DNA from: Mytilus edulis
Lineage: Eukaryota
NCBI RefSeq assembly: GCF_963676685.1
Contig: NC_092345.1
Location: 92,628,001 to 92,692,000 of the forward strand
Reading direction: 5' to 3'
Length of the DNA stretch: 64,000 bases
Shown here: positions 3,001 to 52,700 of the stretch, in pieces
How positions within the stretch are numbered: the stretch's first letter is position 1
Layout of the letters: every line of letters starts with the position of its first letter
The notes under the pieces: model-generated
What the model was told of the DNA's origin: nothing
The model's input: the letters and a program-made list of their open reading frames with translations, nothing else
Databases searched by the model: none
Program-made: the position numbers and the translations under genes

Positions 3001-6000
3001 TTTTTTGAAATAAAATATGTTTAAAGTAGTGAAATTGAAAGTAGATGTACAACTTAAATATCATAGAAAACTGATTTTAACAATAAGTTGAGTTTTATAT
3101 GATTGGGCAGTATCTATGTATTCATTGCTAAGCAGAAGCTTATTGTGTAACGCACATATATGCAGATTTATAGAACAGATAATTTTTATTACTTCGTTGA
3201 CTATGTATATCTCGAATAAAAAACCAACAAAAAGTGACAAACTTTTGACAGTAAAAAACATACTAAAACTATCATTTATGGCTTGAAACATATTTTATAG
3301 GTTAAAGGCTTGATAATCTGTTCTACAATTCTTGTAATGAATAGCCAACAAACATGGTTAGCACATATATATAAAAATAAGAAGATGTGGTATGAACGCT
3401 ATGAGACAACTCACCACCAGAGACCAAATGATGTAAAAGTTAACAACTACATGCCACTATGAGCACGGCATGTTTTATTAACTACTGGTATTGTCAGTAT
3501 GAACTAAAATATTTTAAAGTTTTGAATCCTCTTAAATTTGGTTGACTTTTCGATATTTGAAAATAAAAACTATTTTATTTTTGAATAAGAAATAAGTGAA
3601 ACCATAATGATAATGTAAAGTTGATTAAATATGTTTCTTGAACCATATCTACAAGAGGTAAGACCAAACAAAATAATACAAATGTGTATAAAAAGCCATA
3701 ATCTAACCAAAAATTGTGTACTTCCATTTCAGGTATATCAGACATATCCTCCCAGTCATCTCATCATACTATTGTTACACAGAGTATTAAAGATGGCATC
3801 CTTAATGTTGCTAGACAAACATCAGATTTAAAAGTAGATTTAAAACATTTGCGGAGAATTCAGCAGCTTAATAATGAATCAATGACTGATTCTATACAAG
3901 AAACTATCAAAAAGATTTCGGTGAGTAATATTGAAATACTGTGTCCAAACTTGCCCCATCTGTCCAGGGTTTGACCTCTGTGGTTGTATCAGGTTGCACT
4001 CCATAAAGCATTTTATTGAATCTTGATATATGTATCTTCATTTAGAGATAGTTTTCAATGTGAAAATAAAATTAATGCTAATGAATTTTTGAAAAAGCTA
4101 TTGTAGTATGAATACTTCAATGTTTTTATGAATGCTCTTGTTATACTACGTTATACTAAACAAGAGTGTGTTTATTATTTGTAGAAGGTGCTAACAACAG
4201 TTCCTGGAGCTGAACACCAGGTTCTTCGTCAACAACGATCAGATATAGACACACAATGTAAACATTACAAAGATGATGGCAGTAAAGTGCTAAGAGAATT
4301 AGGGTATGTTAGTATGATCAGATATAGACACACAATGTAAACATTACAAAGATGATGGCAGTAAAGTGTTAAGAGAATTAGGGTATGTTAGTATGATCAG
4401 ATATAGACACACAATGTAAACATTACAAAGATGATGGCAGTAAAGTGCTAAGAGAATTAGGGTATGTTAGTATGATCAGATATAGACACACAATGTAAAC
4501 ATTACAAAGATGATGGCAGTAAAGTGTTAAGAGAATTAGGGTATGTTAGTATGATCAGATATAGACACACAATGTAAACATTACAAAGATGATAGCAGTA
4601 AAGTGCTAAGAGAATTGGGGTATGTTAGTATGGTAGTTGTAAGGTGTTGATTAGGGTCATCTATTTGATTTGACAGACATGTGACAGAGTTGTCAAGCCA
4701 CAACTGGAGATTTGTAAATTTTCAGCTGGAGTTTTTGGCCTCATAACTGGAGATTTTTTATCAACATACGCAATGATTTTGTTGTGTGTTTAAACTGCAT
4801 ATCTTCCTTTTTAGCTCAACTGGCCCGAAGGGCCAAGTGATCTTTTCTCATCACTTTGCGTTGGGCGTCGGCATTGTTAACTTTTACAGAAATCTTTTCC
4901 TCTGAAACTACTGGGCCAAATTAAACCAAACTTGGCCACAATCATCATTGGGGTATCTTGTTTAAAAAAATGTGTCCAGTGACCCAGCCAACCAATCAGG
5001 ATGGCAGCCATGGCTAAAAATAGAACATAAGGGTAAAATGTAGATTTTGGCTTATATCTCTGAAACCAAAGCATTTAGAGCAAATCTAACATGGGGAAAA
5101 ATTGTTAATCAGGTCATGATGAAAATGGTCCATTGACCCCTTAAGGAGTTATTGCCCTTTATAGTCAATTTTTAACAGTTTTTGTAAATTTTTGTAATCT
5201 TTTACAAAAATCTTCTCCTCTGAAACAACTAAGACAAAATGTAACCAAATTTGTCCACAATCATCATAAGAGTATCTAGTTTAAAAAATATGTCTGATGA
5301 CCCTGCCCACGAACCAAAATGGCTTACATGGCTAAAAATAGTACATAGGGTAAAATGCAGTTTTTGGTTTATATCTCTGAAGCATTAAGAGCAAATCTGA
5401 CCGGTGGAAAAAATGTTCATCAGATTTAGATATATCTCCCCTGAAATTTTCAGACAAATCCGACAACCAGTTGTTGGGTTGCTGCCCCTAAGTTAGTAAT
5501 TTTATGGAAATTTTGCAGTTTTTTGCTATTATCTTAGATATTATTATAGTATCTAATAATATCTTGTACTATAAATTATGATTTTAACCTTATTTTACAT
5601 GATTTCCAAAGCATCAGTAAATACAGGTGAGCGACACAGGCTCTTTAGAGCCTCTAGTTTGTTAAAAGAACAATAAGGCCATTTTACTTGATAAAAATAG
5701 AAGATAAGGGGTTTTCAGATATTTATTTGTTATGTATAATTCAAGATAAAGTGATCAGCCATCATACATAGTTGGCAAAAAGTACCTGTGATTAAGCTAC
5801 ATTGTCAACTTTGGTACCACTACTGCACATGATTGTAACAGAAGGTGTTAAATTGATAGAGTTGTAGGCTTGCTGGTGGGTAGCTGTCTCCATAAGTTTG
5901 GTCAAGTCATTAGTGCCACTAAAGTCAGCTTTGCATGAATGTGGTAAGCATGGTCCTGACCCTTGGTACAGGATCTGCACCATTTGAAATCAGATATCCA

Positions 6001-9000
6001 GGCAAGAGTTGAATTTGGCTAGATACTTGGACTTCTTTTATTTGCTGCTGGGCTATTTGGTGGTAAAATACAGTTTGCATTTTGTTAAGTTCTAAAATTT
6101 TAGAATTGTCCAAGACAACTATACTTATATAGGTATTGCTAGACAAGCCATAAATTTAATATTTGAGTTGATTTCAATTTATCTTTGAGGTTCAGTAAAT
6201 ATTCCATGTTTTTAGCATCATATTAAATTGTTTTTTATACAACTTGTACAATTTAATCCTTTGTCAGTATTTCACTTTAAATCAACCAGGCTTGTGTCTT
6301 AAACTAGCTAGTTGAGCACCAGGTAATTGCCTATTATCTCTAATTTATTGTTGTATATGCCATGTATGCAGTCTAATCCTAAACACATCACGCAAATTTT
6401 ACCTATTTTACCATTTGACACAAAATCAATGACAGGAAACTTCCGTTTTTCTCTGATTGTTCCCATATCAATTTTGAGTTTCTCTGACTTTCTTTGTCCA
6501 TATCGATTTTGTAAACAAATTTGTCTACTGAAATTTTTTTGAGGTTGACATTTTCAAAAGCAGATTTCAAATTTTAACGGGGGGGACAGAAGAGGGTCTG
6601 AAAAACGGGTCCGGTGGGAGTCAAAATGTGGAAGATTTTAACCCCTGCCGGAAGAATCACATGTATGAATTGATCACGAGTTAAAGAAAAAAAAATATGA
6701 TACACTAACTAAAGTAAATTCCTACTACTGAGATGATATGCTAGTAATTATACCCCACATCATAAATACTACAGTTACTACCCAACCTTTATGATAAAAG
6801 TTAGTTTTTAGTAATTTCTTGGGACAGCTTGCAGCCTATTTAAACAAAGATAAGGAAATCAAATGTAATATACTGTGCATTTCCATATTAAATAACTAGT
6901 TGGATTTGTTAACAACTAAACTAACACTGTTTGTGTGCAGTAATAGAACAGTTGATCTCTAACATTTATTGAAGAGCTACAAAAAAATTTAAAGTTATAA
7001 ACAACAACGTGTTATGAGATAAATGGGGCAGACAAAATTAAGATAATAACCAATACAAAACCAAGTATATTATCCATGTCTATCTACAGTGTTCTACTTA
7101 ATGCATACTGTAAATGAGAAAATACAATAACATCTTATTTTTTGAGATTAATTAAGAGATATGTTATCTTAATTTCAAATTTTCATTTGAAAATTATCTC
7201 ATAAATTAAAACTTTTCCTTGACAGATTTTTCTGTGTGCTGTGTGTACATGGTGTAGGGAAACTTAGAACACTGGCTTGTCTTTGGTGTCAGACTCTGTG
7301 CTGGTTGATTTTGATTAAGTAATGGATATTAAGACAACATCTAAGATGGAAGTTACGTGAAACAAGATGTAAATTAATTAGATAAATTAATAGATTTTTT
7401 TTGCAGAGATTTAGAATCGTCAGTAGAAGAAATGAGAGAGGATGTGATATCTAGGCAATGTCGAGTAAATCTGGCCGATGTCGAAGGAATGGCTCTTGTT
7501 CTTAGTCATGTGACCAAACATCTTGGAGAACTTAGATGTATGTTCTTAGTTACAAACATAAAGCATATAAACATTTTTATTCTACTTAAATAAATATGTT
7601 TGTGTATCACAAAATTTAGGCTTTTTTTGCTAGGTGTGCTCTGTATTTTAAAAGAAACTCTAACTAACTACCGGAACTCTTGAAATGAATGCTTTCAAAA
7701 TGCAAAGTACCTTCTCATAAACTATAGAATTCTACAAGAATTTACACAACAGCATTTTCTTATAACTTATTTACCAATAGATTATTCTCCATAGTAGCTC
7801 AGTTTTAATACTAATTATTGAAATTATTTTCAGGTCGTTTCCCCGGATTACAGGATCATATGAAGAAAGTAATGAGTGGTGAAATGGAAGTAGTCATCAA
7901 AGAAGAAAAGTAGGTTATAAATTGAACATCTTATATTACAATGTTTACAGGTCTGTATTAGGCTAAGAAATAGATAAAAAAAAAAAAAAGCCCTCATAAC
8001 TCTTTCTGTGTAGTAAAAAGATGATGATCAAAATGTTGCTAAGAATAAGAAATTGATGTTTTAAAATCCAAGATAATCTCAAATCCAAAATCTCCATTAT
8101 TAAGATAGGGTAAACAGAAAAGCCTTACCTGTTAACAAACTGACTTGATATTTCAAGTTTAAAGGGGGAATTTACCAAAATAATTATCTTTTTGATTAAA
8201 GATTAAAGAGTGTTGAATTGCTAAGGAAATTGGATAAGCTTGTTCTACAGTTGTTTGCAAAAAAATTGTGTTTGACCCAGGGCTTCCAAAAAATATTTTA
8301 GCCAGCCGGACATTTTTTATATCTGATCCCAATTTTAATCCCTTAAAAGTCACAAAAGGCAATTATGGTAATCAGATGGCCATCCCAATGATTGACATAA
8401 GATAAAAAAAAAAAAACATATTAAGGCTCGAGCGTATAAAAATTTCAGAAAAAAAATAAACATTTGTTTTTCATTTCAAATTTAATTTGTTACCTTTTGT
8501 AGTTGTTACTTATTATATGGTACAAAAATCATTCAAAACAAACAATTCTTGTTGGCCCCAGATGACTTTTAAAATGTATACATCATTGAAAAAGTTCAAA
8601 AATATCTCCCTTTGGTGGGAAAATGCCATTTTTTGGCTTTAAAATTGAAATATCTTTTTTAACTCATCGGTGACCTATATTTTTTAATATAATTTCCACA
8701 TAAGCTGTACTTAAACTAATTATTGTAAAATTTGAGCGATTTCTGTAATAAATTTCTTTCTTTTTTCTTTTCGATATTACCTTTATTTCTCCTATTACTT
8801 CAACAGAAAAAAAACACCTTTATAAAAATGTATGCTTCTTTCGAAGGCAGATTGTGAGCGCAAATGAACAGTGACCCCACTTTTTTATTTTTATTTTTCT
8901 ATTAACTATAAGATAAAGTTCATTTATAGAAAAATATAGAGAAATCCTATATAAATGATTTAGACCCGCGAACCCCCTTAAGCTTTACTTTGATATGAAT

Positions 9001-16007: not shown

Positions 16008-16207
16008 CTATGAATTCATTAATATCTGTGGGTACCAATTTCCGTGGATTGATGAAAACTTTATTTTTTGTGGATATTTGATTTCGTGGTTTTCCAAAAG
16101 TCTGCATTTAATCTCATAGCAAATTTGCAATTCGTTGAATATTTAAATTCGTGGCTACTCTGCACCCTAAAAACATTGGTATCCAACAAAGAATACTGAA
16201 TCCGCAG
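16008..16207. mobile_element. TA-flanked Tc1/mariner-type MITE; related copies at ~20073-20273 and 48968-49175
   Basis: TA|CTATGAATTCA...TGAATCCGCAG|TA, with shared TTTCGTGG internal motifs in all three copies. Confidence 0.7.
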
Positions 16208-20040: not shown

Positions 20041-20800
20041 AGTTTCATTTTAATATTTCTGTCTTCCAAATACCGTGGATTGTTTTATTTATGTGGGTTC
20101 AAATTTTCGTGGATGGGGAAAAACTTACATTTTCTGGGATATTTTATTTCATGGTTTTGCTGCAATCTGCATGCAAGCCTTAAGATCATTTGTTATTGTT
20201 GAACATTTAATTTCGTGCTTTAACTACCCATGAAATCTATAAAAATTGATTACAAATAATGATGAACCAATAGCCAAAACACAAAATATGAAAATCAGTC
20301 ACTATGAAAGAGCAAGAAGTCAAAAAAGGAGTTGACTGGTGTATCTTGTATTGGTGGTCATTTCATTCAAGAATATTGCCTAAAATGCAGAAAAAGGTTA
20401 AAAACAAATTGGAAGTTTCGATATTAGAGCAGTTTTTCAAACACTATAAGCAACAGGTTAATAATATTTAGTGTATAGATTGACTTCTGGTTTACATGGT
20501 CATAGCGTAGGGTTCATCTGATTTAGTCCTTATGTTTTTAGATCATTAATAAAGTAAATAAATAAACTCATCATTGTAAAGTATATATCATGCCTGCAGT
20601 TATAAAACTTAAATATGAAAAACATTCAAAATGAAATTCAATAATGACCAGTAAAGTATGCCACAACATTTCAGATTCTGCTTATATTTCGGATATAAGC
20701 CAAAAACTGCAGATTTACCTTTGTACAATTTTAGCAAAGGTTATGGTAGTTCATGAATTAAAATCTTGGACACCCTTTATAAACTGACCATTACAAGAAA

Positions 20801-23800
20801 AACTAGGGGCTCTCAAGAGCCTGTGTCGCTCACCTTGGTCTATGTGCATATTAAACAATGGACACAGATATTTAATTCATGACAAAATTGTGTTTTGGTG
20901 ATCGTGATGTGTTTATAGATTTTACTTTACTGAACATTCTTGTTGCTACAATTATCTCTATCTATAATGAACTTGGCCCAGTAATTACAGTGGAAAATAC
21001 TTTCTAAAAAATTACAAAAATTTACAAAAATTTATGAAAATTGTTAAAAAATGACTATGAAGGGCAATAACTCCTTAAGGGGTCTATTGACAATTTTTGT
21101 CATGTTGACTTGTTTGTAGATCTTATTTTGCTGAACATTATTGCTGTTTACAGTTTATCTCTATCTATAATAATATTCAAGATAATAACCAAATCTGCAA
21201 AATTTCCTTAAAATTATTAATTCGGGGCAACAACCCAACAACAGGTTGTCAGATTTGTCTGAAAATTTCAGGGCAGATAGATCTTGACCCGATAAACAAT
21301 TTTACCCCTTTGTAAGATTTGCTCTAAATACTTTAGTTTTAGAGATATAAGCCGAAATCTACATTTTACCCCTATGTACTATTTTTAGCCATGGCGGCCA
21401 TCTTGGTTGGTAGACCGGGTCATCAGACACATTTTTTAAACTAGATACCCCAATGATGATTGAGGCCAAGTTTGGTTAAATTTGGCCCAGTAGTTTCAGA
21501 GGATAAGATTTTTTTAAAAGATTACTAAAATTTTAGAAAAATGGTTAAAAATTTACTATAAAGGGCAATAACTCCTTAAGGGGTAAACTGACAATTTTGG
21601 TCATTTCGACTTATTTGTAGATCTTACTTTGCTAAACATGATTGCTGTTTACAGTTTATCTCTATCTATAATAATATTCAAGATAATAACCAAAAACTGC
21701 AAAATTTCCTTAAAATTACCAATTTAGGGCCAGCAACCCAACATCGGGTTGTCTGTTTTGTCTGAAAATTTCAGGGCAGATAGATCTTGACCTGATAAAC
21801 AATTTAACCCCGTCAGATTTTCTCTAAATGCTTTGGTTTTAGAGTTATAAGCCAAAATCTACATTTGACCCCTATGTTCTATTTTTAGCCATGGCTTCCA
21901 TCTTGGTTGGTTGGCAGGGTCACGCCACAAATTTTTTAAACTAGATACCCCAATGATGATTGTGGCCAAGTTTGGTTAAATTTGGCCTGGTAGTTTCAGA
22001 GGAGAAGATTTTTTAAAAGAATACTAAAATTTTAGAAAAATGGTTAAAAATTGACTATAAAGAGCAATAACTTTGCTGAACATTATTGTTGTTTACAGTT
22101 TATCTCTATCTATAATAATATTCAAGATAATAACCAAAAACTGAAAAATTTCCTTAAAATTACTAATTTGGGGGCAGCAACCCAACAAAGGGTTGAACAA
22201 TTTGTCTGAAAATTTCAGGGCAGATAGATCTTATCCTAATAGACAATTTTACCCCTGTCAGATTTGCTCTAAATGCTTTGGTTTCAGAGTTATAAGCCAA
22301 AATCTACATTTTATTCCTATGTTCTATTTTTAGCTCACCTGGCCCAAAGGGCCAAGTGAGCTTTTCTCATCACTTTACGTCCGGCGTCCGTCGTCCGTCG
22401 TCCGTCGTCCGTCGTCCGTCGTCGTCCAGCGTTAGCTTTTACAAAAATCTTCTCCTCTGAAACAACTGGGCCAAATCAAACCAAACTTGGCCACAATCAT
22501 CATTGGGGTATCTAGTTTAAAAAATGTGTGGCGTGACCCGGTCAATCAACCAAGATGGCCCTATCTGCCCTGAAATTTTCAGATGAATCGGTCAATCGGT
22601 TGTTGGGTTGCTGCCCCTGAATTGGTAATTTTGAGGAAATTTTGCTGTTTTTGGTTATTATCTTGAATATTATTATAGATAGAGATAAACTGTAAACAGC
22701 AATAATGTTCAGCAAAGTAAGATCTACAAATAAGTCAACATGACCAAAATGGTCAGTTGACCCGTTTAGGAGTTATTGCCCTTTATAGTCAATTTTTAAC
22801 CATTTTTCGTAAATTAAAGTAATCTTTTACAAAAATCTTCCCCTCTGAAACTACTGGGCCAAATCAATCCAAACTTGGCCACAATCACCTTTGGGGTATC
22901 TAGTTTAAAAAATGTGTGGCGTGACCTGGTCAACCAACCAAGATGGCCGCCACGGCTAAAAATAGAACATAGGGGTAAAATGCAGTTTTTGGCTTATAAC
23001 TCAAAAACCAAAGCATTTTGAGGAAATCTGACATGGGGTAAAAATGTTAATCAGGTCAAGATCTATCTGCCCTGAAATTTTCAGATGAATCGGTCAATTG
23101 GTTGTTGGGTTGCTGCCCCTGAATTGGTAATTTTGAGGAAATTTTGCTGTTTTTGGTTATTATCTTGAATATTATTATAGATAGAGATAAACTGTAAACA
23201 GCAATAATGTTCAGCAAAGTAAGATCTACAAATAAGTCAACATGACCAAAATGGTCATTTGACCCGTTTAGGAGTTATTGCCCTTTATAGTCAATTTTTA
23301 ACCATTTTTCGTAGATTAAAGTAATCTTTTACAAAAATCTTCTCCTCTGAAACTACTGGGCCAAATTAATCCAAACTTGGCCACAATCTTCTTTGGGGTA
23401 TCTAGTTTAAAAAATGTGTGGCGTGACCTGGTCAACCAACCAAGATGGCCACCACGGCTAAAAATAGAACATAGGGGTAAAATGCATTTTTTGGCTTATA
23501 ACTCAAAAACCAAAGCATTTTGAGGAAATCTGACATGGGGTAAAAATGTTTGTTAGGTCAAGATCTATCTGCCCTGAAATTTTCAGATGAATCAGTCAAT
23601 CGGTTGTTTGGTTGCTGCCCCTGAATTGGTAATTTTGAGGAAATTTTGCTGTTTTTGGTTATTATCTTGAATATTATTATAGATAGAGATAAACTGTAAA
23701 CAGCAATAATGTTCAGCAAAGTAAGATCTACAAATAAGTCAACATGACCAAAATGGTCAGTTGACCCGTTTAGGAGTTATTGCCCTTTATAGTCAATTTT

Positions 23801-25727
23801 TAACCATTTTTCGTAAATTAAAGTAATCTTTTACAAAAATCTTCTCCTCTGAAACTACTGGGCCAAAATAATCCAAACTTGGCCACAATCATCTTTGGGG
23901 TATCTAGTTTAAAAAATGTGTGGGATGACCTGGTCAACCAACCAAGATGGCCGCCACGGCTAAAAATAGAACATGGGGGTAAAATGCAGTTTTTGGCTTA
24001 TAACTCAAAAACCAAAGCATTTTGAGGAAATCTGACGGGATAAAAATGTTTATTAGGTCAAAATCTATCTGCCCTGAAATTTTCAGATGAATCAGTCAAT
24101 CGGTTGTTTGGTTGCTGCCCCTGAATTGGTAATTTTGAGGAAATTTTGCTGTTTTTGGTTATTATCTTGAATATTATTATAGATAGAGATAAACTGTGAC
24201 AGCAATAATGTTCATCACAGTAAGATCTACAAATAAGTCAACATGACCAAAATGGTCAGTTGACCCGTGTAGGAGTTATTGCCCTTTATAGTCAATTTTT
24301 AACCATTTTTTGTAAATTAAAGTAATCTTTTACAAAAATCTTCTCCTCTGAAACTACTGGGCATAATTAATCCAAACTTGGCCACAATCATCTTTGGGGT
24401 ATTTAGTTTAAAAAATGTGTGGCGTGACCTGGTCAACCAACTAAGATGGCCGCCACGGCTAAAAATAGAACATAGGGGTAAAATGCAGTTTTTGGCTTAT
24501 AACTCAAAAACCAAAGCATTTTGAGGAAATATGACATGGGTAAAAATGTTTATCAGGTCAAGATCTATCTGCCCTGAAATTTTCAGTTGAATCAGTCAAC
24601 CCGTTGTTGGGTTGCTGCCCCTGAATTGGTAATTTTGAGGAAATTTTGCTGTTTTTGGTTATTATCTTGAATATTATTATAGATAGAGATAAACTGTAAA
24701 CAGCAATAATGTTCAGCAAAGTAAGATCTACAATAAGTCAACATGACCAAAATGGTCAGTTGACCCGTTTAGGAGTTATTGCCCTTTATAGTCAATTTTT
24801 AACCATTTTTCGTAAATTAAAGTAATCTTTTACAAAAATCTTCTCCTCTGAAACTACTGGGCCAAACTAATCCAAACTTGGCCACAATCATCTTTGGGGT
24901 ATCTAGTTTAAAAAATGTGTAGCATGACTTGGTCAACCAACTAAGATGGCCGCCACGGCTAAAAATAGAACATAGGGGTAAAATGCAGTTTTTGGCTTAT
25001 AACTATGAAACCAAAGCATTTAGAGCAAATCTGACAAGAAGTTAAATTGTTAATCAAGTCAATATCTACCTGCCCTGAAGTTTTCAGATGAATTGGACAA
25101 CTGGTTGTTGGGTTGCTGCCCTCCAAATGGTAATTTTTAAAGAAATTTTGCCATTTTTGGTTATCTTGAATACTATTATAGATAGCGATAAACTGTAAAC
25201 AGCAATAATGTTCAGCAAAGTAAGATCTAGAAATAAGTCAACATGACCTAAATGGTCAATTGACCCCTTAAGGAGTTATTGCCCTTTATAGTCAATTTTT
25301 AACAATTTTCATTAATTTGGTAAATTTATGTAAATTTTTACCAAATATAGTTCTCTGTTACTAATGGGCAAAGTTCATTATAGATAATATTGTAAGAAGC
25401 AAAATCGTTCAGTAAAGTAAGAACTTCAAACACATCACCATCACCAAAATACGATTTTGTCATGAATCCATTTGTGTCCTTTGTTTAATATGCACATAGA
25501 CCAAGGTGAGCGACACAGGCTCTTTAGAGCCTCTAGTTAGCCATTGCAGCCATCTTGGTTGGTTGGCAGGGTCACGCCACACATTTTTTAAACTAGATAC
25601 CCCTATGATGATTGTGGCCAAGTTTGGTTAAATTTGGCCCAGTAGTTTCAGAGGAGAAGATTTTTGTAAAAGTTTACGGACGACGGACGACGGACGCAAA
25701 GTGATGAGAAAAGCTCACTTGACCTTT
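20801..25727 (-). mobile_element. Helentron/HINE element (outer copy, minus strand) interrupted by an inverted copy of the same family
   Basis: Reverse-complemented 3' end AACTAGGGGCTCTCAAGAGCCTGTGTCGCTCACC at 20801. ~500-bp cores. The sequence resumes at ~25538 and ends with (GACG)n and GTGATGAGAAAAGCTCACTTG at ~25700-25727. Confidence 0.85.
22331..25537 (+). mobile_element. Helentron/HINE element (inner copy) with ~6 tandem ~500-bp core repeats
   Basis: Starts TAGCTCACCTGGCCCAAAGGGCCAAGTGAGC, then a (CGTCCGT)n microsatellite. Core marker CAAGATGGCC-like at ~22551, 22939, 23441, 23942, 24441 and 24941. Ends with hairpin GGCTCTTTAGAGCC-TCTAGT. Inserted at T|T. Confidence 0.9.
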
Positions 25728-26480: not shown

Positions 26481-26486
26481 TTTATT
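26481..26486 (-). other. Candidate polyadenylation signal of ARPC2 (AATAAA on minus strand)
   Basis: TTTATT on + strand, ~690 nt past the ARPC2 stop. Confidence 0.4.
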
Positions 26487-27170: not shown

Positions 27171-30100
27171 TCAATTCATCTTGAAAGTCTTGCCACTGAA
27201 ATAAAACAAAAAAAACATTATTTTTTAATAATTAAGTTGGTTGAATTTTTTTCAAAACTTTGCTTCAAGTCATCATATAACATAATTAGAGATTTTTCTA
27301 AAATCTTAGATACCAAATTTCTGACAAATAACTGAAAATATGAATTTTATAATGTGTTATTTGATTCGCTATACATGTTTCTCTTATTCTAAGACAAATT
27401 ATACTTTCCCGAAAAAGTTAATTATATTTTTGATAAAACCATCCTCCTTTTCCCAGAATATTAATCACCTACTGAATTAGAATTATCTCCTGGTTTGTAC
27501 TGACATAGATCACATTTAGGGTACCACATTTGAAACAGGATCTGCTTACCCTTCCAGAGCCCCTGAGATCACTTTCGGTTTTGGTGTGGTTTGTGTTGCT
27601 CAGTTTTTAGTTTTCTTTGTTGCATTTTGTGTATTGTTGTTTTATGGTTGTTTTTTATGTTTTGTCATGGGGTTGTCAGTTTTTTTTTTACTTATGAGTT
27701 TGAATGTCCAGTCCCTTTGGTATCTTCAAGATATATTCATATCAAATCTATTTTGGCATAATTTTCGTCCTATGTTTTACTAATAATTTTTAACATCAAA
27801 TAACTATTTATGTTGCATTGCCAATAATTTACATATTGAATGTTATTTATTCATAATGTATACTAACGTAATTGTTTTCTTTTCTTTCTGTTGATCTGGT
27901 CGAGCTCTGTTCAGTACTTTTAGAAAATCTGAACACTTTGCTCTCATCCTCGAATGGATGTAGGCCTAAAAAATATAAACAATCATTTAATTATGAGTTT
28001 CTTATTATTGTTTCTAAAATATTTCATAAAAAAATGTGTATCAGACCTTTTTCAAATCATAACAAAATACAAAAAGAAATCTATTCAAGTACAAATTTTG
28101 TTGAATATATCAACTGCAATATATTTAATGTTTGGCCATTATGAATGTTGACTAAATATACTGTATGTGAGCCACAAGCAAAAGTGTTTTTTTACCAGAT
28201 TACATACAACATGTACAACACTAAACTTAATGTAAGTACATGTATTTGTAATTGTATAGAGACATAAGGTCCAAATTAACAAGTTTAAAAGAAGCACCCG
28301 GTTTTGTTGTTAAAGGATAAACACTATTCTAAGTTCCATGATTTCCAATCTGTCTATAAAATGAGGAAAATAATTTACCTTAGAACACTTTATATGATAA
28401 TGTAAATAATCTCGGAGTGTGTGGATTAGGTTGATCGTGTTATCACGTACAGCTGCACCAGTGTGACGAGGAAACAAAACTGAAATAACAAATCATTCAT
28501 TAATCAATAAATGTTAATATGAAACCAAGAGAATCTGAGATATATTTATTCCTTATCAATTTCAAACAAAATATATATAAATTTAAATATTACTATAGTT
28601 TATGAGTAAATATGAATCATAGCTTTACATATGATAAAGACAATTGTCTATTTTCCTTTTTGAAATACTGTCTCATTGACGAACAACACTTATTTTTTTT
28701 TGTATGTAAAATAATAATTTCAATAAACAAGACAAGAAACTAAAAGAAACTTGATTTCAAGTCGCTCCATATAACATGTGCATCTCTATACTTTAAGTCA
28801 TTGTATTAAAACCTACCAAAAGTAATATATCCTACATTATCCCCACCACGAGCGTCTGTTCCTTTCAATTCCATTGGAGGTTCTTTGTGACTAAACAATA
28901 CTTGTGGTGCTTGTTGGTAATTTCTTCTTCCTTCTTTAAATTCCTAAAATTATTAGGTGACAACATATTTTTAACTTTATGAAATACAAAATAAGTTTCT
29001 AAAGAGAGTACACTAGATATCTTAAACCTCTTCACTATCATTATTAGTACAGGTTTTTGGTTAAATTATCTAAACTGCATATGATGATAGTGGAGCTGAG
29101 GACAGTGCATGTTTTAGTGTTACCTATAAAAGAGCACTTTGATGTTTTTGGAAAGCATTTGTTTTGTGTGGATCCTCATGATCCCAGTACATATAATATG
29201 TTTGTTTAATTACGATTTTTTTAAATTACTGATAAAATGTACATCATTTTCAACAGTTTGACATATTTTAGTGTATTTTAAAAAGTTCAGAAGAGAAGTG
29301 CAAGATACCGTGCAAATTCTTTCAACTTCTGTTCAAGGAAATGATTTGTGATATAATCAGATGCAACTGTTATCAAACAAAACACTATAAAAATTGATTA
29401 ACTGCCACAACTCTTTTAAACTTTTGTTGTAATATCTTCAGTTATAGTTTTGTTAACTGCATTTTTCAACTACCAAAAATTTCATTTATAAGTTTTTGTA
29501 GTGACCTGTTTTCAGATTAAACTTACTGCCCTATTTTTGAGGATTTCTTGTGAATAGGTTAACCATTGAATTAAATGTCCAATGAAGAACAAATTCTATA
29601 AGTTTGTAGGCAAACTTTAATAAAATATATGTGAAATTATGTATTTAAAATAAATAATTGTGACAAACTAAACTGAAAACTAGAGTCTTTTTGACTTAAT
29701 AATCTTCGTACCTGCATAAATAATTTTCCTATAACAATATCGTCATCATCTTTAAACACTGTACTAAATATAACTGTCACTCTGTCTTTCTGGGCCTCAA
29801 CATACCTATAATATCATACTCAAAGATAATAAGACTCCTTGTGCCTCAACATACCTATAATTTCACATTGAAAGTTTGACTAAAAACAAAATATTGAAAA
29901 ATGAAGAAATGATTGGTGTACTAAAACATACTTTAACAAATAAGCAAAAAATCATATTCTGATAGGCCAATATAACCAATGATCTAGATTAAGCAAATAA
30001 AAATAAGCGTAATTATAAAAATAAGTTAATTTGTCAATGCGGTCAATGAAACTCATAGACATTCTGTATTTTTATGTAACATTGCCTATCTAGACAGCTG

Positions 30101-36384: not shown

Positions 36385-36480
36385 TTTAGCAGTGACTTAT
36401 TCCTCTGAAAGAAGGGTGGGTTATTCCTTATTCCGGAACTGTTGTTGATTTCCAACCTTGCCTTTGTAACACTTCTTTTC

Positions 36481-36670: not shown

Positions 36671-37461
36671 GACAATAGTTATAAGTAACAGTTAGGTATA
36701 CTAAAAACATAGGTATTTAAAAGTAGAAGAATATTATTGAAAAATTTCATGGGTCATTCAAAGAAATCCATGGTAAAAAAACGCCCACATCGGTCACAGA
36801 GACTCGGTGAGACAAATGGAGAGACAGGCCATAACACAAATCATTGTGTACTGACTCATTCTTGGATGAAAAATAAAATTTTAACACTTAAACAGAATTA
36901 CATGTCACAGGGTAATATGGCCACTTAATCTTTGTAAATTAAAATAGGGCGTTGAATATGTGACGAAATATAATGTTGCAAACCATTTATTTCACACTGA
37001 AAGTACATAAAATATTAATTATAATAAACATTTATTTCAAATGTTAACTTGAAGTTTCCTTCTAAATTGAACTATGAATTGGATAGAAGTACATGCATGT
37101 TAAGGCCTAAAAAAAATGTGATTACCTGAAAGTAGGGAAAAAGTTAGGGTGTCCCTTATGTAGCGTGCATGCTTAAGTGTGTGAAACTCGCATTAGTACG
37201 AGTTCACCGTATATATAGTGCTAGAAAAAGTGGCGGGTTGCATGCATAATAACTTCGTGCAGAGTAGTATATAGAGTAAAGTCTTTTTCTAACTGTCCGT
37301 CAATGAATGAACGTAGTAAATATATAGTACACACAACATATAGTGTAGTACTAGTATATAATTGTACTCTAATAAATAGCTACGGTGACATACAAATGTA
37401 CATATATCCTTATCTATCTCCATTTCCGTATTTACCTTTGCACATGAACGAGGTAAACAAC

Positions 37462-37927
37462 TGTAATGGTGGTCACTTTGTTTACTTGTCTATATTCTAT
37501 TTATTTGGGGATATTGGTTAACTTTAGAATTACTTATAGTTCCGTAACTCTTTCTTCCGAGACCGGCCATGAAATTATCCTTGTCGGGACTTCCTGTTCT
37601 GGCACGTGCCCGGCCGGGCTCGTTGTCCATAGGAACTATAAGTATGACGTCACTCACCGGGTTCTGGGCAGTCTACATTAAGGATTTAAAATGAGCAGAC
37701 GCTCATATCGTTTGGCTTTCAAATATGGAACGTTATAAGGACAAGTAGACTAGCCACCACCGTATTTTAGTATATTTATTCATGTAATCGTATGTTCAAC
37801 CATAATGTATGTCTTCAAATAAACATCTTGTTTATATTTACGTAGTTTTACGTACTTTGTCCAATATCCCAGAACTTGGGTAGACAACGGGAAAACGAAG
37901 CCAGTGGAAACTTCCACTCCCGTTACA
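37462..37927 (+). repeat. 5' LTR
   Basis: TG...CA ends, TGACGTCA at 37645-37652, AATAAA at 37818-37823, followed by the PBS. Confidence 0.93.
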
Positions 37928-38100
37928 TTGGGGGCTCGTCCGAGGGATATTTGAGGACAATAACTTAAACAAACATTGTGTTTGTACATTATTTCGGCGA
38001 TATGGTCGGAATAAAAGGTATTTTTGTATCCCTAGGAGTCAAAATCGAACAGTTTATTGTTCGTCTGCTTGTCATTTCCGCTGTTTGTGCCGGTCCGACA

Positions 38101-38485: not shown

Positions 38486-40094
38486 CCATGAAAAAGTTGT
38501 TTAATTTGTTAGTTTTGTTTATTGGTTCGTATTCATATTTATTGTCATAAATGGATTTGGAAAATCAAATAATTTGTTTTGATTATACTTCAAATTGTTT
38601 TGGATTAAAAAGTACATTTTGTACTTTGTACTTGCATTTCTGTCATGCAGTATTGTCTGCATATCTATGTCTTGTCAGTGTGGATGTAATAACAATTATT
38701 TACCTTTCTTGCATGGAAAGGAGGGAATTAACAATACTCAAACTTAAAAGTGGTACCGTAAGTCATAGGCTATATTGTGCCATCATGGATATTATACTGG
38801 AAATTTGTCCGGTTTATTTTGATATTGTAAAAAGGACTAAAAGTACAGTTTTTGTACTCGGTTATATTTATAATATAATATCTTGATATTTATTTTAACG
38901 TTGATCTTTGGAAATAAACTGAATTATCTCAGTTTGGTGGGATTGTTACGTCAGTTGAGGAAAATAATACTGAATCTTTTCAGTTGCTAAGCAATGTGGC
39001 TTAGGTAAATGTAGAAATTGTGGATATAGCGAGGATTTGGATTAAAATGACATTTTTGTCATACAGCTGGAATAGGGTTGTCTGGTACGAGTTGTGACTA
39101 GAATAAAGATAATAGAAGAACGTACACTCATTATCTTAGCTGTTGTTGGAAGCTGCTTTCGGTGGTGTATACATATAGAGGCAATTTTGGAAATACCTTA
39201 GGTGCTAGAATGGCGCGAGAATAGGTGTATATTTTGCGTATACATTTTTATTGTAAACCTTAATTGGTTCACCATGGGTATGTTGTCCACATGACTAAGA
39301 ATATTGTTTGGGGATTGCTGGAATACAAGGAATGATTTATTATTACAGTTCAATTGTTTTATATGACTTTCTAATTTTTGAATATATTTAATAAACAAAC
39401 AATCAGTTTGTATGGATTTCAGTATAGAAATGTGTGTTTTATATGGTTAAAGTAATACCATGGGCTATATGCTTTCGGTGACCAATAAAATTACATATTG
39501 GGGCACCCGATCAAGTGGTGCAGTACTCGTGTATGATAGACTTTTAAAGACTCTTGGTGAGTCAGGATTTTATAAGAAGAATGTGCTTCTTAATTTATTC
39601 CAGTGTCTGACAGAATATAGGTGGTAAAACTGAAACTGTTTCAGTGCGTGGATAGCTGGCCACAATGAGGGAACATATTGGATTTTATATTGGCCTTTTT
39701 GCCGATAAGTTTAACGTAACTAAACCACATGGAATTATAAATGTTGGGGAACACTTACTTGGACTACTTTACAGATTTGGAACCTCTACTAGACGAATTT
39801 TACCTTATTTACCTACCTGGAACCTTGGACAAGATGTGTGCCTGGATGCTCCGCTCGAACTTTATAATTGGATTCCTTACTCCGTGATGATGTCTCGTGA
39901 TGTATTTGTGACTTTTGAACATTTAGTGAATGACAATTGAATACTTTGAACTATTTATCAAATTATTTATTGACATTAACAGTAAATTAATTGTTGTTGA
40001 TAATTATATGTGTCTGTATTCTAAATTTTGGTAAGTATACCTCACCGATCTTTGGACTAATGTGTGGGCACATTATGTCTTAAGAGAGGGGGAG

Positions 40095-40560
40095 TGTAAT
40101 GGTGGTCACTTTGTTTACTTGTCTATATTCTATTTATTTGGGGATATTGGTTAACTTTAGAATTACTTATAGTTCCGTAACTCTTTCTTCCGAGACCGGC
40201 CATGAAATTATCCTTGTCGGGACTTCCTGTTCTGGCACGTGCCCGGCCGGGCTCGTTGTCCATAGGAACTATAAGTATGACGTCACTCACCGGGTTCTGG
40301 GCAGTCTACACTAAGGATTTAAAATGAGCAGACGCTCATATCATTTGGCTTTCAAATATGGAACGTTATAAGGACAAGTAGACTAGCCACCACCGTATTT
40401 TAGTATATTTATTCATGTAATCGTATGTTCAACCATAATGTATGTCTTCAAATAAACATCTTGTTTATATTTACGTAGTTTTACGTACTTTGTCCAATAT
40501 CCCAGAACTTGGGTAGACAACGGGAAAACGAAGCCAGTGGAAACTTCCACTCCCGTTACA
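40095..40560 (+). repeat. 3' LTR
   Basis: Copy of 37462-37927, preceded by the PPT; AATAAA at 40451-40456. Confidence 0.93.
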
Positions 40561-42488: not shown

Positions 42489-43037
42489 AAGATGTTGTGA
42501 TTGGTTTAAAATTCTAAACAATGGTACATGTAATTGAACCACTGACGTAATATTTCATTTAGATGAGATTACCCATAGTCTGTTAAATTATAAAAAGTTG
42601 AATGTGTAGCTGATTTTTCCTTAGATAATTGGATTAAGAATACTGTGGCAGATATTTTAAATGGTACAAATTAGCAATGGTACCAGTTAGTGGTAGTGCA
42701 AGTTAACATTATTATGAGTTGACTTTTAGGGGAATGAGTTTATGTGGTATCAGTTTACTTAACTAAAGTGTCCAAACTAAATAGAGCTACATGTATACCA
42801 AACTATCATTTGCCCTTACCCTAACACTAGCCCTGTGTTGAAGAATCTTAATAAATCATGCGTTGTGTTTTTCTATACGTTTAATCGTCGTGATAGCTAA
42901 TGCATATAATATAACGTCACAGAGTAAAGCGGTATGGTAACAACGTTACCATAACGTAATGTTTGTACTTCGTGTATTTTCCGACACCCTGAACTTAAAA
43001 CCTGTTCTAGAAGACTTAAACATACCCATACCATATT

Positions 43038-43673
43038 ATTATGCCCCACCTACGATAGTAGAGGGGCATTATGTTATCTGGTCTGTGCGTCCGTACGTCT
43101 GTCTGTCTGTTCGTTCGTCCGTCTGTCCCGCTTCAGGTTTAAGTTTTTGGTCAAGGTAGTTTTTGATGAAGTTGATGTCCAATCAACTTGAAACTTAGTA
43201 TACATGTGCTCTATGATATGATCTTTCTAATTTAAATGCCAAATTATAGTTTTGACCCCAATTTTACGGTTCACTGAACATAGAAAATGATAGTGCAAAT
43301 TTCAGGTTAAAGTTTTTGGTCAAGGTAGTTTTTGATGAAGTTGAAGTCCAATCAACTTGAAACTTAGTATACATGTGCCCTATGATATGATCTTTCTAAT
43401 TTAAATGCCAAATTATAGTTTTGACCCCAATTTTACGGTTCACTGAACATAGAAAATGATAGTGCAAAAAATTTCAGGTTAAAGTTTTTGGTCAAGGTAG
43501 TTTTTGATAAAGTAGAAGTCCAATCAACTTGAAACTTAGTATACATGTTCCCTTTGATAAGATCATTCTTATTTCAATGCCAAATTAGAGAATTTATTCC
43601 AATTTCACTGTCCACTAAACATAGAAAATGATAGTGCGAGTGGGGCATCCGTGTACTGTGGACACATTCTTGT
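43038..43673 (+). mobile_element. Helentron/HINE element with 3 x ~170-bp tandem cores
   Basis: Starts TTATGCCCCAC..GGGGCAT, then a (GTCC/GTCT)n microsatellite. Cores start at ~43132, 43301 and 43473. Ends GTGGGGCAT plus hairpin GTGTAC..GGACAC-ATTCTTGTTT. Confidence 0.85.
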
Positions 43674-43732
43674 TTTTTATTTGTTTTTTGTGTGTTATAT
43701 ATTGTTTAAATTTTTTTATATTCCAGGTGACA

Positions 43733-46700: not shown

Positions 46701-49700
46701 AATATGTAACACATCAACAAACAACTTAGGACTGGCACATACATACAGAATGTGTCAAGGTTAAACATGTTAGCAAGATCACAACCCTCCTTAACCTCAG
46801 ACAGTGGTGTGACTGTACAAAATAAGAAGGAACTATAAAAATCAGTTTAAATATGTCTATCCATAACTTGTAACAACAACAAAATAAAAAGCCATGACAC
46901 AACATATCTTACATGGGTGTAACATTAAAGAAGTTTTAATTGACATTGCTTTCAAATTGAAAAAAAAAACTATTTTTTTTTTCACATAATACTGTACTGA
47001 AGAATATGCAGTTGAAGACTTCTGTTTCACTTTTAGTTTTCTTGTCCAATTTCACCCCTCATTCTTATGAACTTTATTTGGCTGCTGGCTTGATAACAGA
47101 AGTGCAAATTTGAAAAAAAAAACTTACTTGTAAGGCTGTATGGTTATATTTATATTCACAGATAGTGAACCTGAATCAGATGATTCTTGTTATGCTACAC
47201 CAGGCAATAGGAATAACAACAGACGCAAATCCAGAAGTAGAAGAACAACTTCAACAGCAGAGTAAGTCTAAGGTGTAGATCCGTTAGTGATTAGATTGCT
47301 GCTGCAGCATTTATAGTAGAAAGAAAAACTTTAATATGTTCTCATTTTTATGCAGTTTACAAAGAATAAACATGAATCTTTTAGTTGAAAATTTGAAATA
47401 GTAAAGATAGAGATCAAGGTAGTTTTTGGGAGCAACCCTCAACCATGTAATATGTTATAGCTCTTTTTACAATTGCTTTCATAGGGATACTTGGGACATG
47501 CTTGAATCTTTATTTCAAGGAGGATTGATTTTGCAGTGCATTATTATTTAGCTTCATTTCATTTAATGAACTGAATAAAAAAAAAAAAAAAAAAAAGTAT
47601 GCAATTTATTTAAAGTGGTTATTTTAGATTAGTTTTAAAACATAAAAAAGTTGTAATTGAATTGATAATTAAGAAGACCGGTATATGGTCATTCAAGAGA
47701 ACACCGATGTGAACAAGGAACTATAAAGGTTTGTGCCATATAAACTCTATTACTGCTGCTTTCACCCTTTTTTGATGTGCTAGATGTCAAAAAATATTAT
47801 TCAGAAAATAAAGAAGTTGGTTTTATGTGCTGGTTTTTGATTAATGTAGATTGTTTTGTTTCTATGATCCACATGTATACAGTATTGTTTGTTATTTTTC
47901 AGTACTCCTGGAATGAGAAAAGCTCTATCTGCCAGTAAAGGTCTAAATAGAGTACATTTCTTCATATCAAAAACAGTCATTAAACCAGAAACCTGTACAC
48001 CAGTAAGTATACACAGGTGTTAATGGTTATACACATAACTGTAAATATCAAAAACAGTCATTAAACCAGAAACCTGTACACCAGTAAGTATACACAGGTG
48101 TTAATGGTTATACACATAACTGTAAATAAGTGTCTTATGTTTGTTCGCTGAAGGTGGCAAGATAGGCCGCTGCCAGACATAGTTGTTTGTTATAGTTTTA
48201 TGAAAAAAATGGCATAATTAATAAAGGATATATATTGCAGTCTTTTTAATTGCTATCAGAGCAAAAGCAGTGGCACCAAAATGGGCATTTAAAATCACTG
48301 AAGAGGTCCTACGAAATGCAAGTATTTGTGTGATTGGAAGGCAATTAACATTTTTATCGTGTTTCTATACAACATAAATGTTTTGATTGCATTTATTAAC
48401 ATAATTTTAAACTTGAAGAACTTTCTTTTCAGTGTGGTAAAAGAATAGGGTTTGGAAGAATGGCAATGAAGTGTAAAGGTAGGAAACACTTTTTTGTTTA
48501 ACTTACATTAAAGTGTGATCATTTATCAGCAAAATGTTCAGGATTTGGAAATTATACAAGACAAGGTTGTACAGCAATTCTTATTGCCATACAAAAGCAG
48601 TGTTAATGTATCACTTAACTTTTGATGACACAAATAGATGCAATTCAGATTTCATTCCAAATCCATAACTAACATATTTTGAATGTTACTTCATCTAGAA
48701 AATTAAAAATAATGACACTTATTCCTGTTTATAAAAAAATGATGTAAATCAGATGTAGTCATCTCATATCTTTGTATATCACTCAGATATGCGAAGACTA
48801 CATTTATTTCAATTACAATTTATGGATTTTATTATGCCTCGACATTTTCAGTTTACTTTAATTAGAACTTAAATGAATGGTACAACAAAGTTCGTTATGG
48901 TATGATAAATAAAATTACTTCAGAAGCTAAAAAATAGACAACAGCTGTTTTCTGTCAATTTTATATATTGTGAATTCATTATTATTCGTTGGATACCAAT
49001 TTTCGTTGACTTCTTGGGTAAAGGTGAACCATGAAATTAGATGTTTAATGAATGACAAATTTTCTATAGGCTTGTATGCAAACTTTCGCAAAATAACGAA
49101 ATCGAATATCCATGAACATGTATATTTTCCTTAATCCATGAAAATAGGTACCCACGAAATTAAATGAATCCACAGTAGGCTTGTCTGACAATTGATAAAT
49201 GTTAGATTAATTCATTGATTTTCAATCCATAACTGCTTTTAGATAAAGATACTATCAAACATGACCATTACTATATTTGATATTTTTGTAATGTATTTAC
49301 TTTCAGACTGTAGAGCGTCCTGTCATCCAGATTGTAAAGACAGTTTACCACTTCCTTGTATACCTACAGCACCTAGTACACCTGGTGGTACAAAATTAAG
49401 TGGAGTAAGTCTGTTAACCTGCAGGTTATCTTACTGATCTGTGATCATTAAAAGATTTGCTTTACATTTTAAATATTGTAGCCTCATAATTTTGTCATCT
49501 TTCTGACTTGATATTTTATGCAAATTTCAAGTCCTGAGATGAGATTCCTTTACATAAAATTATCATAAATGCAACTTGTAGCAATGAGAAGTTTAATACT
49601 CATTTTAAATACAGCATAAAAAAGATATCCCCTGAAACTATCAACCCTCAAGAATTCAAATTGGTAAGTATAGAACTGTGGTGCTGTTACAGGCTATAAC

Positions 49701-52700
49701 TGTTGTACTATTGGATCTATTTCAATTGACTGGGCGGGTTTAACCTGTTCGCTTATTAAAGACCAGTCCATCAATAGACAGGTGTTTTGGGATAAAACAG
49801 CAGTAAAGTGTCTAGTTATTCGTCCCATATTATATGCTTAGTACTTTTGTCTATCTGTTTGGTGACACTGATAGGTGTCAGATTAGATATCAATAATAAT
49901 TATAACAGCAATTATCCTTAACACAAACATTTTCAAATAGACTGGCCTTATGCAAATTAGAACATAAGCTCTGCCCAATCAGTTGAAATTACAGCAATTG
50001 GTAATACAGGGAAGTGAATTTAAAGGTTGATTTTAAATTAATACAGGTGGATGTTATGTTTTTTTAATTCATATTGATATGTATCGATCTGTGGGCATTA
50101 CTCAAAAGTTATGCCAGCAATGCTAATTTTCAAAATTAATTATCAGTATTTTATCTTTCATAAAGACTGGCTAAAAAATCAGGAAACTATTGGAGATTGT
50201 ATATTGAAACACCAAAAAAAATGTATCTATATGTTCCTTTAGTTTTCAGTTATATTTTTTGAGAATTTAATATTTGTATGATTTTTTTTTTAGGGTTTAA
50301 TATCTGACTACACACCATTAGATCCACCATACATACCAGGAATAGTTGTAAGTTTTCACTGTATAATTATGATTACAAATTCTTAGATATAAGCCAAATA
50401 CGGAAAAGCTATGAGTTTTCTAGGATAGAAAATAATAGAAAATACTATTAAATGACATTTCAACATTGTTACTTTATACTTACAGACAAGCATTGGTTCT
50501 GTTGTTACTTTATACTTACAGACAAGCATTGGTTCTATGTTGACTCTTGAAATGTATCATGCAAAACAGGCACATTTTCATTTGAAATACCCCTTTGTTA
50601 AACACAACTTGCAGAAAAAAAATAATAGCGGAAAAATTTATACATATATATTAATACACACTGCTTAAATTGCCTATATGAGCTATTGTCATCAATTTCA
50701 ACTGCTTCTGTTTTAAAAGAAAATTTAACTTCTGAAGTATTTTGGTCCTCTGGCACATTCTTTTTATGATGTTCATTTGTATAATAGGTACATTGTGTAA
50801 ATGAAGTAGAAGCTAGAGGCCTGAGTGAAATTGGTTTATACAGAGTGCCTGGGTAAGTTACATGAAGTAGAAGTTAGAGGCCTGAGTGAAATTGGTTTAA
50901 ACAGAGTGCCTGGGTAATTTACACCGTAAAACTAATAAATCACAAAAATAAAATGAAAACTGGAACAAATCTTATCAGAATCTCTAATAATCTTTTACTG
51001 ATTGCACCAGAAGGTAATTTGTATTTTTGTATAGGGAAATAACCCTTTCTTTTTTATTTGTATATAACAACCTAAACTACTCTGTACTTTAAAAATTCAA
51101 TTTCCTTTCAAATACTGTTGGAAAATTGCCAAAAATTCCTATAATAATACTGTTTCCTTTTAAGAAATGATGAAAAATACAATGATATTTTAAATCATTT
51201 TATTTTATCAAATAATGAAAAGTGATGAAAATTTTGAGAAAGTATAGAAGTATTTGTCAGAAAGGTTTTGTTTTTCACTTTACTGTATTTTAGGGATACA
51301 TGAACTCGTTCCAAATATGAAAACAATTTCAGTTATCAATGTAACTCATTCTATGCGTAGTTTTAGAGCTTTATTAGATTAAATTTGGTTTTTATGACTT
51401 AATTCATCATAAACAAAACTAGCAACAATAGAACATGTATATTGAAGTTAATTATCAGGTTAATAATTATCTCCCCTTTAATTATCATCTGGCCTTATTT
51501 ATTGTGAAAAGTGTTTACAATTTGTTAACTGATATCTGTTTTCAGATCTGACAGCCAAGTTAAAGAATTAAAGAAAGATTTCTTCAAAGGAAAGGGTATT
51601 CCAAATCTGGTAAGTTGTTATTCGCCTCTGCAAGATATAAGTATAAAAAAAACTTATGACGTTAAGTCCTAACCAATTTAAAATAAGCAAGACATATCAG
51701 GTTTTCCACTCTTGTTTAATTCATAAATATGTTTCTTTCTGTAGATGGTAATTATCTGGAGAACCTACCAACCATGTATAACTTTTTTGCCTTAATTGGA
51801 TATATATATATTTATTTATTTATTTATTTAGTATGTCTTTTATTTCAGTCACATATAGATGATATACATGTAATATGTGGTTGCATCAAAGATTTTCTTC
51901 GAGGATTAAAAGAACCTCTAGTTACATATGGCCTGTGGAAGGACTTTGTGCATGCAGCAGGTAAAATACATATATATGGCACTTCCATTGCATAGCCTGT
52001 AACAAAAGTATGAGCATGACATAAAGATAGAAAATTTGGCAGTAGCCTAAACTCTATGTAAAAAACTTCTTATTTTAAGGTAGAAGACAGGGATAGTTCA
52101 TACCTTGTATACACTTTAAATAGAAATAAGAAGATGTTGTATGAGTGCCAATGAGACAACTCTCCATCCAAATCACAATTTGTAAAAGTAAACCATTATT
52201 ATGTTCTAAAGTTTCCATATGTCATATGAAAATTGTCCTTCAACTCATTTTCTTGGTTCATTAAATGCTTGAAAAAAAACTAGATTTTCAATCACATGAA
52301 TTCATATTTTATGATGAATTAAATATGGTTAATGGAATAAATGTTGTAAAGTAGTTTTCTCAGATATTTTAAGCAAAAAGGTCAGTTATATTTTGTATAT
52401 GGAATGTTTGTAAGGTGTACATGAATGAATGGCATGTTTCATTTGACCTTGACCTCATTCACATGCACATGGATAATTGCTAATGTTGTGTGTTATTGAT
52501 ACTTGTTTAAAATTTTCCACACATAAAAATGACATTTGGTTTAGGAAAGACTTTCCAGGTTGTGCTCTCTTGTTATGAAGATCCACATTTGGTTTAGGAA
52601 AGACTTTCCAGGTTGTGCTCTCTTGTTATGAAGATCCACATTTGTTGTTTCTGTATTACAAAGCTTAAAAACATTGTACAAACATTTTCTTTAATCTAAT

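Follow-up and report, generated by a model that had tools for sequence, protein, structure and literature searches.

Tandem duplications spanning splice donors are approximately three- to six-fold enriched in Mytilus edulis DNA, as seen across 1.8 Mb sampled outside of the window with which this analysis begins. That window is a stretch of 64,000 nucleotides (assembly GCF_963676685.1, contig NC_092345.1, positions 92,628,001 to 92,692,000 of the forward strand) within a genome of 1.37 Gb, and it holds three genes, i.e., a member of the AIP3 family (+ strand; here 'gene 1'), ARPC2 (- strand), and RacGAP1 (+ strand). Six duplications which are neither transposable element (TE) nor low-complexity sequence are found in the window, using both Tandem Repeats Finder (TRF) and an independent offset scan, and four of these six lie on splice junctions. 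Three of the four cover donors (5 x 79, 2 x 81, and 2 x 61 bp) and one covers an acceptor of ARPC2, with the other two being intronic (2 x 36 and 2 x 53 bp). An earlier reading of this window, the original prediction, had pointed to four short duplications over exon-intron boundaries in three genes, along with two other clean ones, and these are confirmed by TRF, by our own finder, and by checking of the junctions. That the pattern might extend beyond the window is borne out as well by the repeat scan of those 1.8 Mb. The excess it proposed for splice junctions in general, however, holds for donors, at several-fold, but is weak or absent for acceptors.

Donor enrichment outside the window

The DNA scanned consists of both flanks of the window plus seven 200-kb blocks centred on DEAD-box matches, blocks which were picked without regard to repeats. 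This is 0.13% of the genome and is rich in housekeeping genes. Exons were predicted using a finder that was seeded on the window and then retrained on the other blocks, with 33 of 34 acceptors and 30 of 33 donors recovered on the window itself using 41 predictions. As the finder was run on sequence in which duplications had been collapsed, copies were unable to create exons. The first TE mask concealed arrays longer than roughly 1 kb, including one of 44 x 75 bp; a later mask spares long arrays. A curated set of 17 donor events was obtained by dropping seven of 24 anchor-test rows (three redundant rows of one complex array and four doubtful or coding repeats).

Among 32 genic, non-TE tandem duplications with units of 45 to 150 bp, 13 span a predicted donor, versus 2.48 expected (0 of 100,000 draws), while acceptors are spanned by two of the same 32, versus 2.08 expected. 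TRF places 16 of 45 on donors, versus 2.82, or 7 of 24 versus 1.37 without blocks C2 and C12 (p=0.0003), with re-masked counts of 17/54 versus 3.31 and 13/51 versus 3.06. A within-gene null gives 13/37 versus 2.72 and 10/34 versus 2.42, and for genes with a donor array the counts are 11/21 versus 2.61 and 7/19 versus 2.32. Anchor tests point in the same direction, that is, 21/712 donors versus 19/1778 with redundant rows included (odds ratio, OR, 2.8) and, in a second such test, 17/501 donors versus 28/4835 (OR 6.0). This second test is also where acceptors show an excess (9/513 versus 34/4846, OR 2.5, p=0.018); none that is significant is seen for acceptors in the duplication-span, TRF, re-masked TRF (units of 45 to 150 bp), first anchor, or within-gene tests. 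Two-copy events are found on donors in 7 of 18 cases, versus 1.33 expected, and the donor share by identity bin is 3/10, 7/13, and 3/9, with 3/9 at identities of at least 98% to be compared with 0.67 expected. Altogether 10 of 428 to 13 of 437 predicted donors carry a duplication, or approximately 2-3%.

Donor events cluster in some genes, with three donors of gene 1 amplified. Two further donor arrays of gene 1 are located upstream of the window, the 44 x 75 bp array noted above (3.3 kb; L020, approximately 2026-5330) and one of approximately 7 x 83 bp (L021, 2683-3258). One DEAD-box gene possesses four arrays, two of donor type and two of acceptor type; in another, three events fall on donors and one on an acceptor, and a gene for mRNA-capping enzyme has one complex donor array along with two acceptor events. 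Coordinates of these 'hot' genes are L171 (3913-4131, approximately 4830-5580, approximately 5950-7295, and 8267-8354), L052-L053, and L048.

Duplications of the window

The relevant features of the window are as follows, by window position:

4185..4303, + strand: gene 1 host exon, with its authentic donor after 4303 (tblastn of P0051/P0053; PF03915)
4237..4632, + strand: 5 x 79 bp array of gene 1, the unit being the exon's last 67 nt plus 12 nt of intron
after 4382, 4461, 4540, and 4619, + strand: decoy donors of the 79-bp array, each yielding a stop
29712..29805, - strand: ARPC2 (p34-Arc) host exon, with its authentic acceptor at 29805 (Pfam PF04045, exon snapping)
29794..29861, - strand: ARPC2 19-bp direct repeat, 7 nt of intron plus 12 nt of exon, with a 30-nt filler and an offset of 49
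47903..48002, + strand: RacGAP1 host exon, with its authentic donor after 48002
47964..48128, + strand: 2 x 81 bp of RacGAP1, 39 nt of exon plus 42 nt of intron with a 3-nt overhang, 100% identical, polymorphic, distal donor at 48083
50466..50536, + strand: 2 x 36 bp, purely intronic control (TRF, own finder), absent from run X10
50788..50852, + strand: RacGAP1 65-nt RhoGAP exon (Pfam RhoGAP), with the donor after 50852 used in RNA
50801..50923, + strand: 2 x 61 bp of RacGAP1, the decoy donor (50913) having a +5 G-to-T change
52532..52644, + strand: 2 x 53 bp, purely intronic control (TRF, own finder)

Gene 1 is assigned to the AIP3 family based on PF03915, as found for its proteins P0050-P0053, and we take it to be KIAA1217/SRCIN1-like. 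Its exons, which were located by tblastn of P0051 and P0053, match P0051. The ARPC2 exon matches Pfam P34-Arc (PF04045, E 2.4e-12), and one exon of RacGAP1 matches a protein of Mytilus galloprovincialis with 100% identity. If first donors are used, then RacGAP1 has an open frame of 611 aa, 601 of which are the same as in a M. californianus protein (P0005).

TRF and the independent finder agree on the three donor arrays, which are 98% (79 bp), 100% (81 bp), and 95% (61 bp) identical. These had been described as centred on junctions, which they are not, as the units instead are mostly exon (67/79, 39/81, and 52/61). The 79-bp array, whose locus is single in the assembly, may have expanded stepwise, as a synonymous variant that alternates among its copies suggests. 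No alternative haplotig was found in the assembly for either the 79-bp locus or the 81-bp one. The ARPC2 event is, as claimed, a repeat with an offset of 49 nt, but it is a spaced direct repeat rather than a true tandem duplication. No local template of more than 10 nt was found for its filler, and a metagenome scan for ARPC2 alleles found nothing. The decoy acceptor of this repeat, upstream at 29854, scores 3.6 versus 4.9 for the authentic site, and the repeat holds an AG|GT site that is usable both as acceptor and as donor. Across all four events, each decoy site would add an in-frame stop, where a stop or a frameshift had been anticipated.

Anatomy of donor units

The sampled donor units, too, are mostly exon with a short tail of intron. 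That tail is no longer than 12 nt in 8 of the 17 curated events, versus 2.1 expected, or 6 of 14 versus 1.7 outside of the window. Use of the first decoy would lead to a stop in 15 of the 17. Identity among copies is in most cases 92-99%, and their variants are structured. When spare copies are compared with the functional one, 30 differences are synonymous and 23 are non-synonymous, a synonymous share which exceeds the neutral 0.25-0.28 (p<=1e-5) and, marginally (p=0.01-0.04), a relaxed null of 0.40-0.44, i.e., the share if the functional copy too is drifting at silent sites. Counted with one more row removed and the 44 x 75 array added, array singletons are near neutral (12:18), and shared or two-copy differences are at 17:8.

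Decoy donor positions are changed at 9 of 101 versus 53 of 912 for the exon part of units, which at this low power is not a significant difference (p=0.27), whether toward faster or toward slower decay of decoy donors. CpG-depleted segments of genes contain 14 of 15 donor events (14 per 407 exons versus 1 per 130), and in 3 of 17 cases, versus 0.9 expected, the breakpoint on the exon side has a CpG no more than 3 nt away. A link to CpG or methylation nevertheless is not significant (p=0.21). Donor and intronic events do not differ in length of microhomology. In GC content, intronic duplications exceed their background (0.356 versus 0.307).

Variation among individuals and use in RNA

Reads from public runs were compared at two RacGAP1 events, the 61-bp and the 81-bp, and the polymorphism among individuals that had been put forward for checking is seen at both. 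Thus, the 61-bp duplication, or a 70-bp form that appears to be its parent, is present in four of four DNA runs (X1, which may be the assembly's own sample, X5, X8, and X10). X1, X5, and X10 contain a joint that leads from 50858 back to 50789, with four letters fitting both sides, and record 18 of run X8 bridges the 61/70-bp copy junction. Judging from these joints, a duplication of 70 bp, running from exon nt 2 to donor +6 at a 4-nt microhomology, would have come first, with the 61-bp unit resulting from a loss of 9 nt. One of the 81-bp copies is missing in X5, where contig 10 joins 47963 to 48045. Length as well as presence therefore are polymorphic, and the two events are real alleles that vary between individuals. 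The intronic 36-bp copy is absent from X10, and many intronic indels are seen in the runs.

RNA contigs from all three informative runs (X17, X19, and X20) display joints 50347-50788 and 50851/2-51545/6, that is, normal splicing from the authentic donor at 50852 to 51546, albeit as contig-level data from one locus. No joint from the distal RacGAP1 donor is seen in these three sets, though contigs lose rare forms and the samples are assumed to be from carriers. Raw reads of a further RNA run, X22, do not cover the exons. The suggestion that decoys serve regulation coupled to nonsense-mediated decay (NMD), or intron gain, finds no sign in these data.

How donor duplications may arise and persist

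At donors the authentic site belongs to the upstream copy, so that the mRNA would be unchanged, while at an acceptor it is the decoy that lies upstream. Selective filtering, one of two processes originally offered, can explain in this manner the asymmetry between donors and acceptors, but it is unable to raise junction duplications above the neutral rate of introns. A bias in birth or in retention is therefore needed. Our reading, to which we give a probability of approximately 0.5, is that duplications are over-represented at donors via exon-edge repair or unequal exchange in combination with a nearly harmless first-donor rule. Ordinary slippage or break repair, sometimes at a microhomology of a few bases, would copy the 3' end of an exon along with a short tail of intron. 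In a very polymorphic genome, exon plus splice motif might then represent the stretch that is still alignable between alleles, and other alleles, through unequal exchange or through conversion, would create, expand, and refresh exon-edge units more than intronic ones, presumably leaving synonymous allelic variants within spare copies. Selection would remove duplications from within exons, and more of those at acceptors, whereas first donors are predicted to stay in use, making donor duplications nearly harmless. Such upstream-first choice of 5' splice sites is described for human F7 (PMC1557585, in its accessible text), and mussel heterozygosity is given as 1.73%, with 36.78% of sequence hemizygous, in the part available of PMC7653742. 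An allelic origin is favoured as being consistent with strong differences between alleles, with tails that end near the donor motif, and with synonymous variants in spare copies. In a bolder form, to which we give somewhat less than even odds, exon-end copying could be genome-wide in hyper-polymorphic mussel genomes, with exons as islands of allelic homology, with repair or exchange ending shortly after the donor motif, and with spare copies seeded from other alleles at 2-3% of the donors of housekeeping genes.

Various observations weigh against this reading. Units of 20-45 bp show no donor excess (0/29, with 0.97 expected), and a crude test for a copy within 4 kb gives 30/526 donor windows versus 26/352 and 23/305 intron windows, though this test is biased to long intronic arrays and mis-mapped those minus-strand exons with collapsed copies. 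Exons outside of the window are ab initio predictions, with a Pfam match at E<=0.05 in 11 of 23 tested. Seven of the eight blocks are DEAD-box-centred and the eighth flanks the window, while two arbitrary blocks, C11 and C6 (190 kb, 59 predicted exons), yield a single array, a coding repeat, blocks which are uninformative since they are gene-poor. Intronic arrays attain equally high copy numbers. An excess of synonymous changes is expected likewise where, after an ordinary sister-chromatid duplication, the functional copy evolves or is converted, no one class of difference on its own beats the 0.44 null, and flat enrichment across identity bins fits a birth bias as well. Carriage of the duplication by the RNA sources is assumed, and the first-donor rule of F7 is mammalian.

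The main rival is just such a birth bias, one that is due to chromatin or transcription, with breaks or nicks at the 3' edges of exons of methylated, expressed genes (as at a nucleosome edge, with 5-methylcytosine repair, or with an R-loop or paused polymerase), followed by sister-chromatid origin of copies and selection keeping the donor side. We consider it somewhat unlikely, though present data do not separate it from an allelic origin. Short tails (8/17 at 12 nt or less), the flat enrichment over identity bins, and the two-copy events (7/18 versus 1.33) all are in keeping with it, as are the 14 of 15 events in CpG-depleted segments and the CpGs near breakpoints (3/17 versus 0.9), but that CpG association has p=0.21, the high-CpG segments may be false predictions, and birth bias alone does not predict a synonymous excess. 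A bias solely of persistence or detection, by contrast, would have duplications originating uniformly, with intronic copies decaying, being deleted, or being missed while junction copies are anchored by a constrained exon. The crude 4-kb test, which shows no excess, agrees with this, as do the GC-richer intronic duplications (0.356 versus 0.307) and the presence of a RacGAP1 donor duplication in 4/4 DNA runs under three organism labels while the intronic 36-bp copy is absent from X10. It nonetheless appears improbable, as adjusting for GC moves the expected donor count to 3.07, and GC plus two-fold persistence moves it to 5.08, a null which still fails (p=0.0006), as the excess is found also at 98% identity or more (3/9 versus 0.67), and as persistence should act on acceptors to the same degree, whereas their enrichment is far lower.

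That decoys are functional, being kept for NMD-coupled regulation or as intermediates in intron gain, is in our estimation very improbable. Stops upon first-decoy use (15/17) and the dual-purpose AG|GT site of ARPC2 would suit this idea, as would the intron gain from mirages that is proposed by Ebner et al. (PMC3087553) and the use of some pseudo-sites by IFI6 and CBS (PMC1557585), so far as the accessible text of each goes. RNA contigs, however, show the first donor only, decoy donors show no conservation in excess of that of the remaining unit, presence varies between individuals, stops would be expected simply from AT-rich tails, and the candidate 49-nt intron of ARPC2 probably is too short. 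Assembly artefacts, finally, are scarcely credible as an explanation. The 81-bp pair is 100% identical with its novel junction displayed in no run, and the 79-bp array and ARPC2 repeat are known from the assembly alone, but for most copies identity is just 92-99%, with variants that are structured, independent runs contain the 61/70-bp duplication, and artefacts would show no preference for donors. On balance the donor excess likely is a by-product of DNA repair or of allele exchange rather than of gene regulation.

Implications

The observation extends to the blocks sampled. Regulatory and intron-gain readings are without support here. The origin of splice-junction minisatellites is called unclear in the amphioxus literature (PMC3087553, in its accessible portion), and allelic copying of exon ends, if true, would be that missing origin, leading from two-copy seeds to kilobase arrays. 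Because a donor-biased excess here is joined with young two-copy alleles, and in a much-resequenced genus, birth bias, allelic exchange, and persistence can be tested against each other. Extrapolating from 2-3% of donors, there would be hundreds to thousands of cases in nature by which to test, for an invertebrate, the choice of the first donor. Multi-copy exon ends also are a warning with regard to mussel read mapping and intron-length markers.

Other features of the window

A small, probably alternative exon of gene 1 is located at 951-983, with a similar peptide in P0052 that is absent from P0051. RacGAP1 appears to have alternative last exons (59370-59405 and 62928-63000); two Mytilus reference RacGAP1 proteins differ at their ends, with one of these endings only found in the window. 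Between gene 1 and ARPC2, at approximately 20800-25700, are nested tandem and inverted copies of a repeat family of approximately 500 bp. Near the starts of ARPC2 and RacGAP1, near-identical copies of approximately 480 bp (at approximately 37460-37930 and 40080-40560) flank a 2-kb stretch and resemble the terminal repeats of mobile elements. A foldback element of approximately 440 bp, like a miniature inverted-repeat transposable element, is found in a RacGAP1 intron (58385-58826) and is 97-99% identical at many loci. Both of its arms carry an exon-like stretch with a donor motif, which the exon finder scored as exon. As an inverted 'exon copy' it was considered part of the finding and then rejected, since it is multi-copy, with 40 of 40 scored candidates matching.

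Relationship to known systems

The three tandem arrays of the window are members of what have been termed mirage, or splice-junction, minisatellites, with the spaced repeat of ARPC2 belonging only loosely. The original description of the phenomenon as little described thus holds for its genome-scale bias but not for its structure, which is published. Somatic instability is a feature of the Adh3 mirage of amphioxus. Mirages in that animal are reported as well for globins BflGb6 and BflGb9, troponin C, and PGBD5, along with Adh3 (PMC3087553, PMC3902484). As the accessible text of these papers has it, these resemble the mussel events in being tandem copies over exon-intron boundaries, on donor and acceptor sides, with units of tens to approximately 150 bp, in varying in length between haplotypes, and in leaving normal splicing apparently unaffected; their mechanism of generation is stated to be 'unclear', and a model of intron gain is proposed (PMC3087553). 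They are described there gene by gene, whereas the mussel adds a measured rate, a donor bias, short tails, and many two-copy precursors.

Human splice-donor variable number tandem repeats, i.e., F7 IVS7 (intervening sequence 7; 37 bp), IFI6 (6-16), CBS IVS13, LMNB2, and PDGF (PMC1557585, from the part available), likewise have a first monomer over the boundary, identical pseudo-donors downstream, and use of the upstream site. They constitute a handful of loci, however, and exon makes up 4 nt of the F7 unit, which is mostly intron, whereas exon predominates in sampled mussel units. Some pseudo-sites are used in IFI6 and CBS, while none are seen to be used in the mussel RNA contigs, for one RacGAP1 locus. 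Human repeats that modulate splicing in a different geometry are covered in the accessible text of PMC10078293. Intron gain by tandem or internal duplication (the Rogers model; Gao and Lynch 2009; cited in PMC3087553 and PMC2809761, with the latter, by Farlow et al., itself concerning intron gain, so far as its available portion indicates) shares with the mussel events a duplication of splice-like motifs and premature stops that NMD could mask. With the mussel events, however, coding sequence is unchanged, with no new intron or exon shown. The literature searched, with subscription papers not covered, held no genome-scale enrichment test of splice-junction duplications. While the structure itself is published, what appears to be new is the measured excess at donors, together with the short tails of the units and their skew toward synonymous differences.

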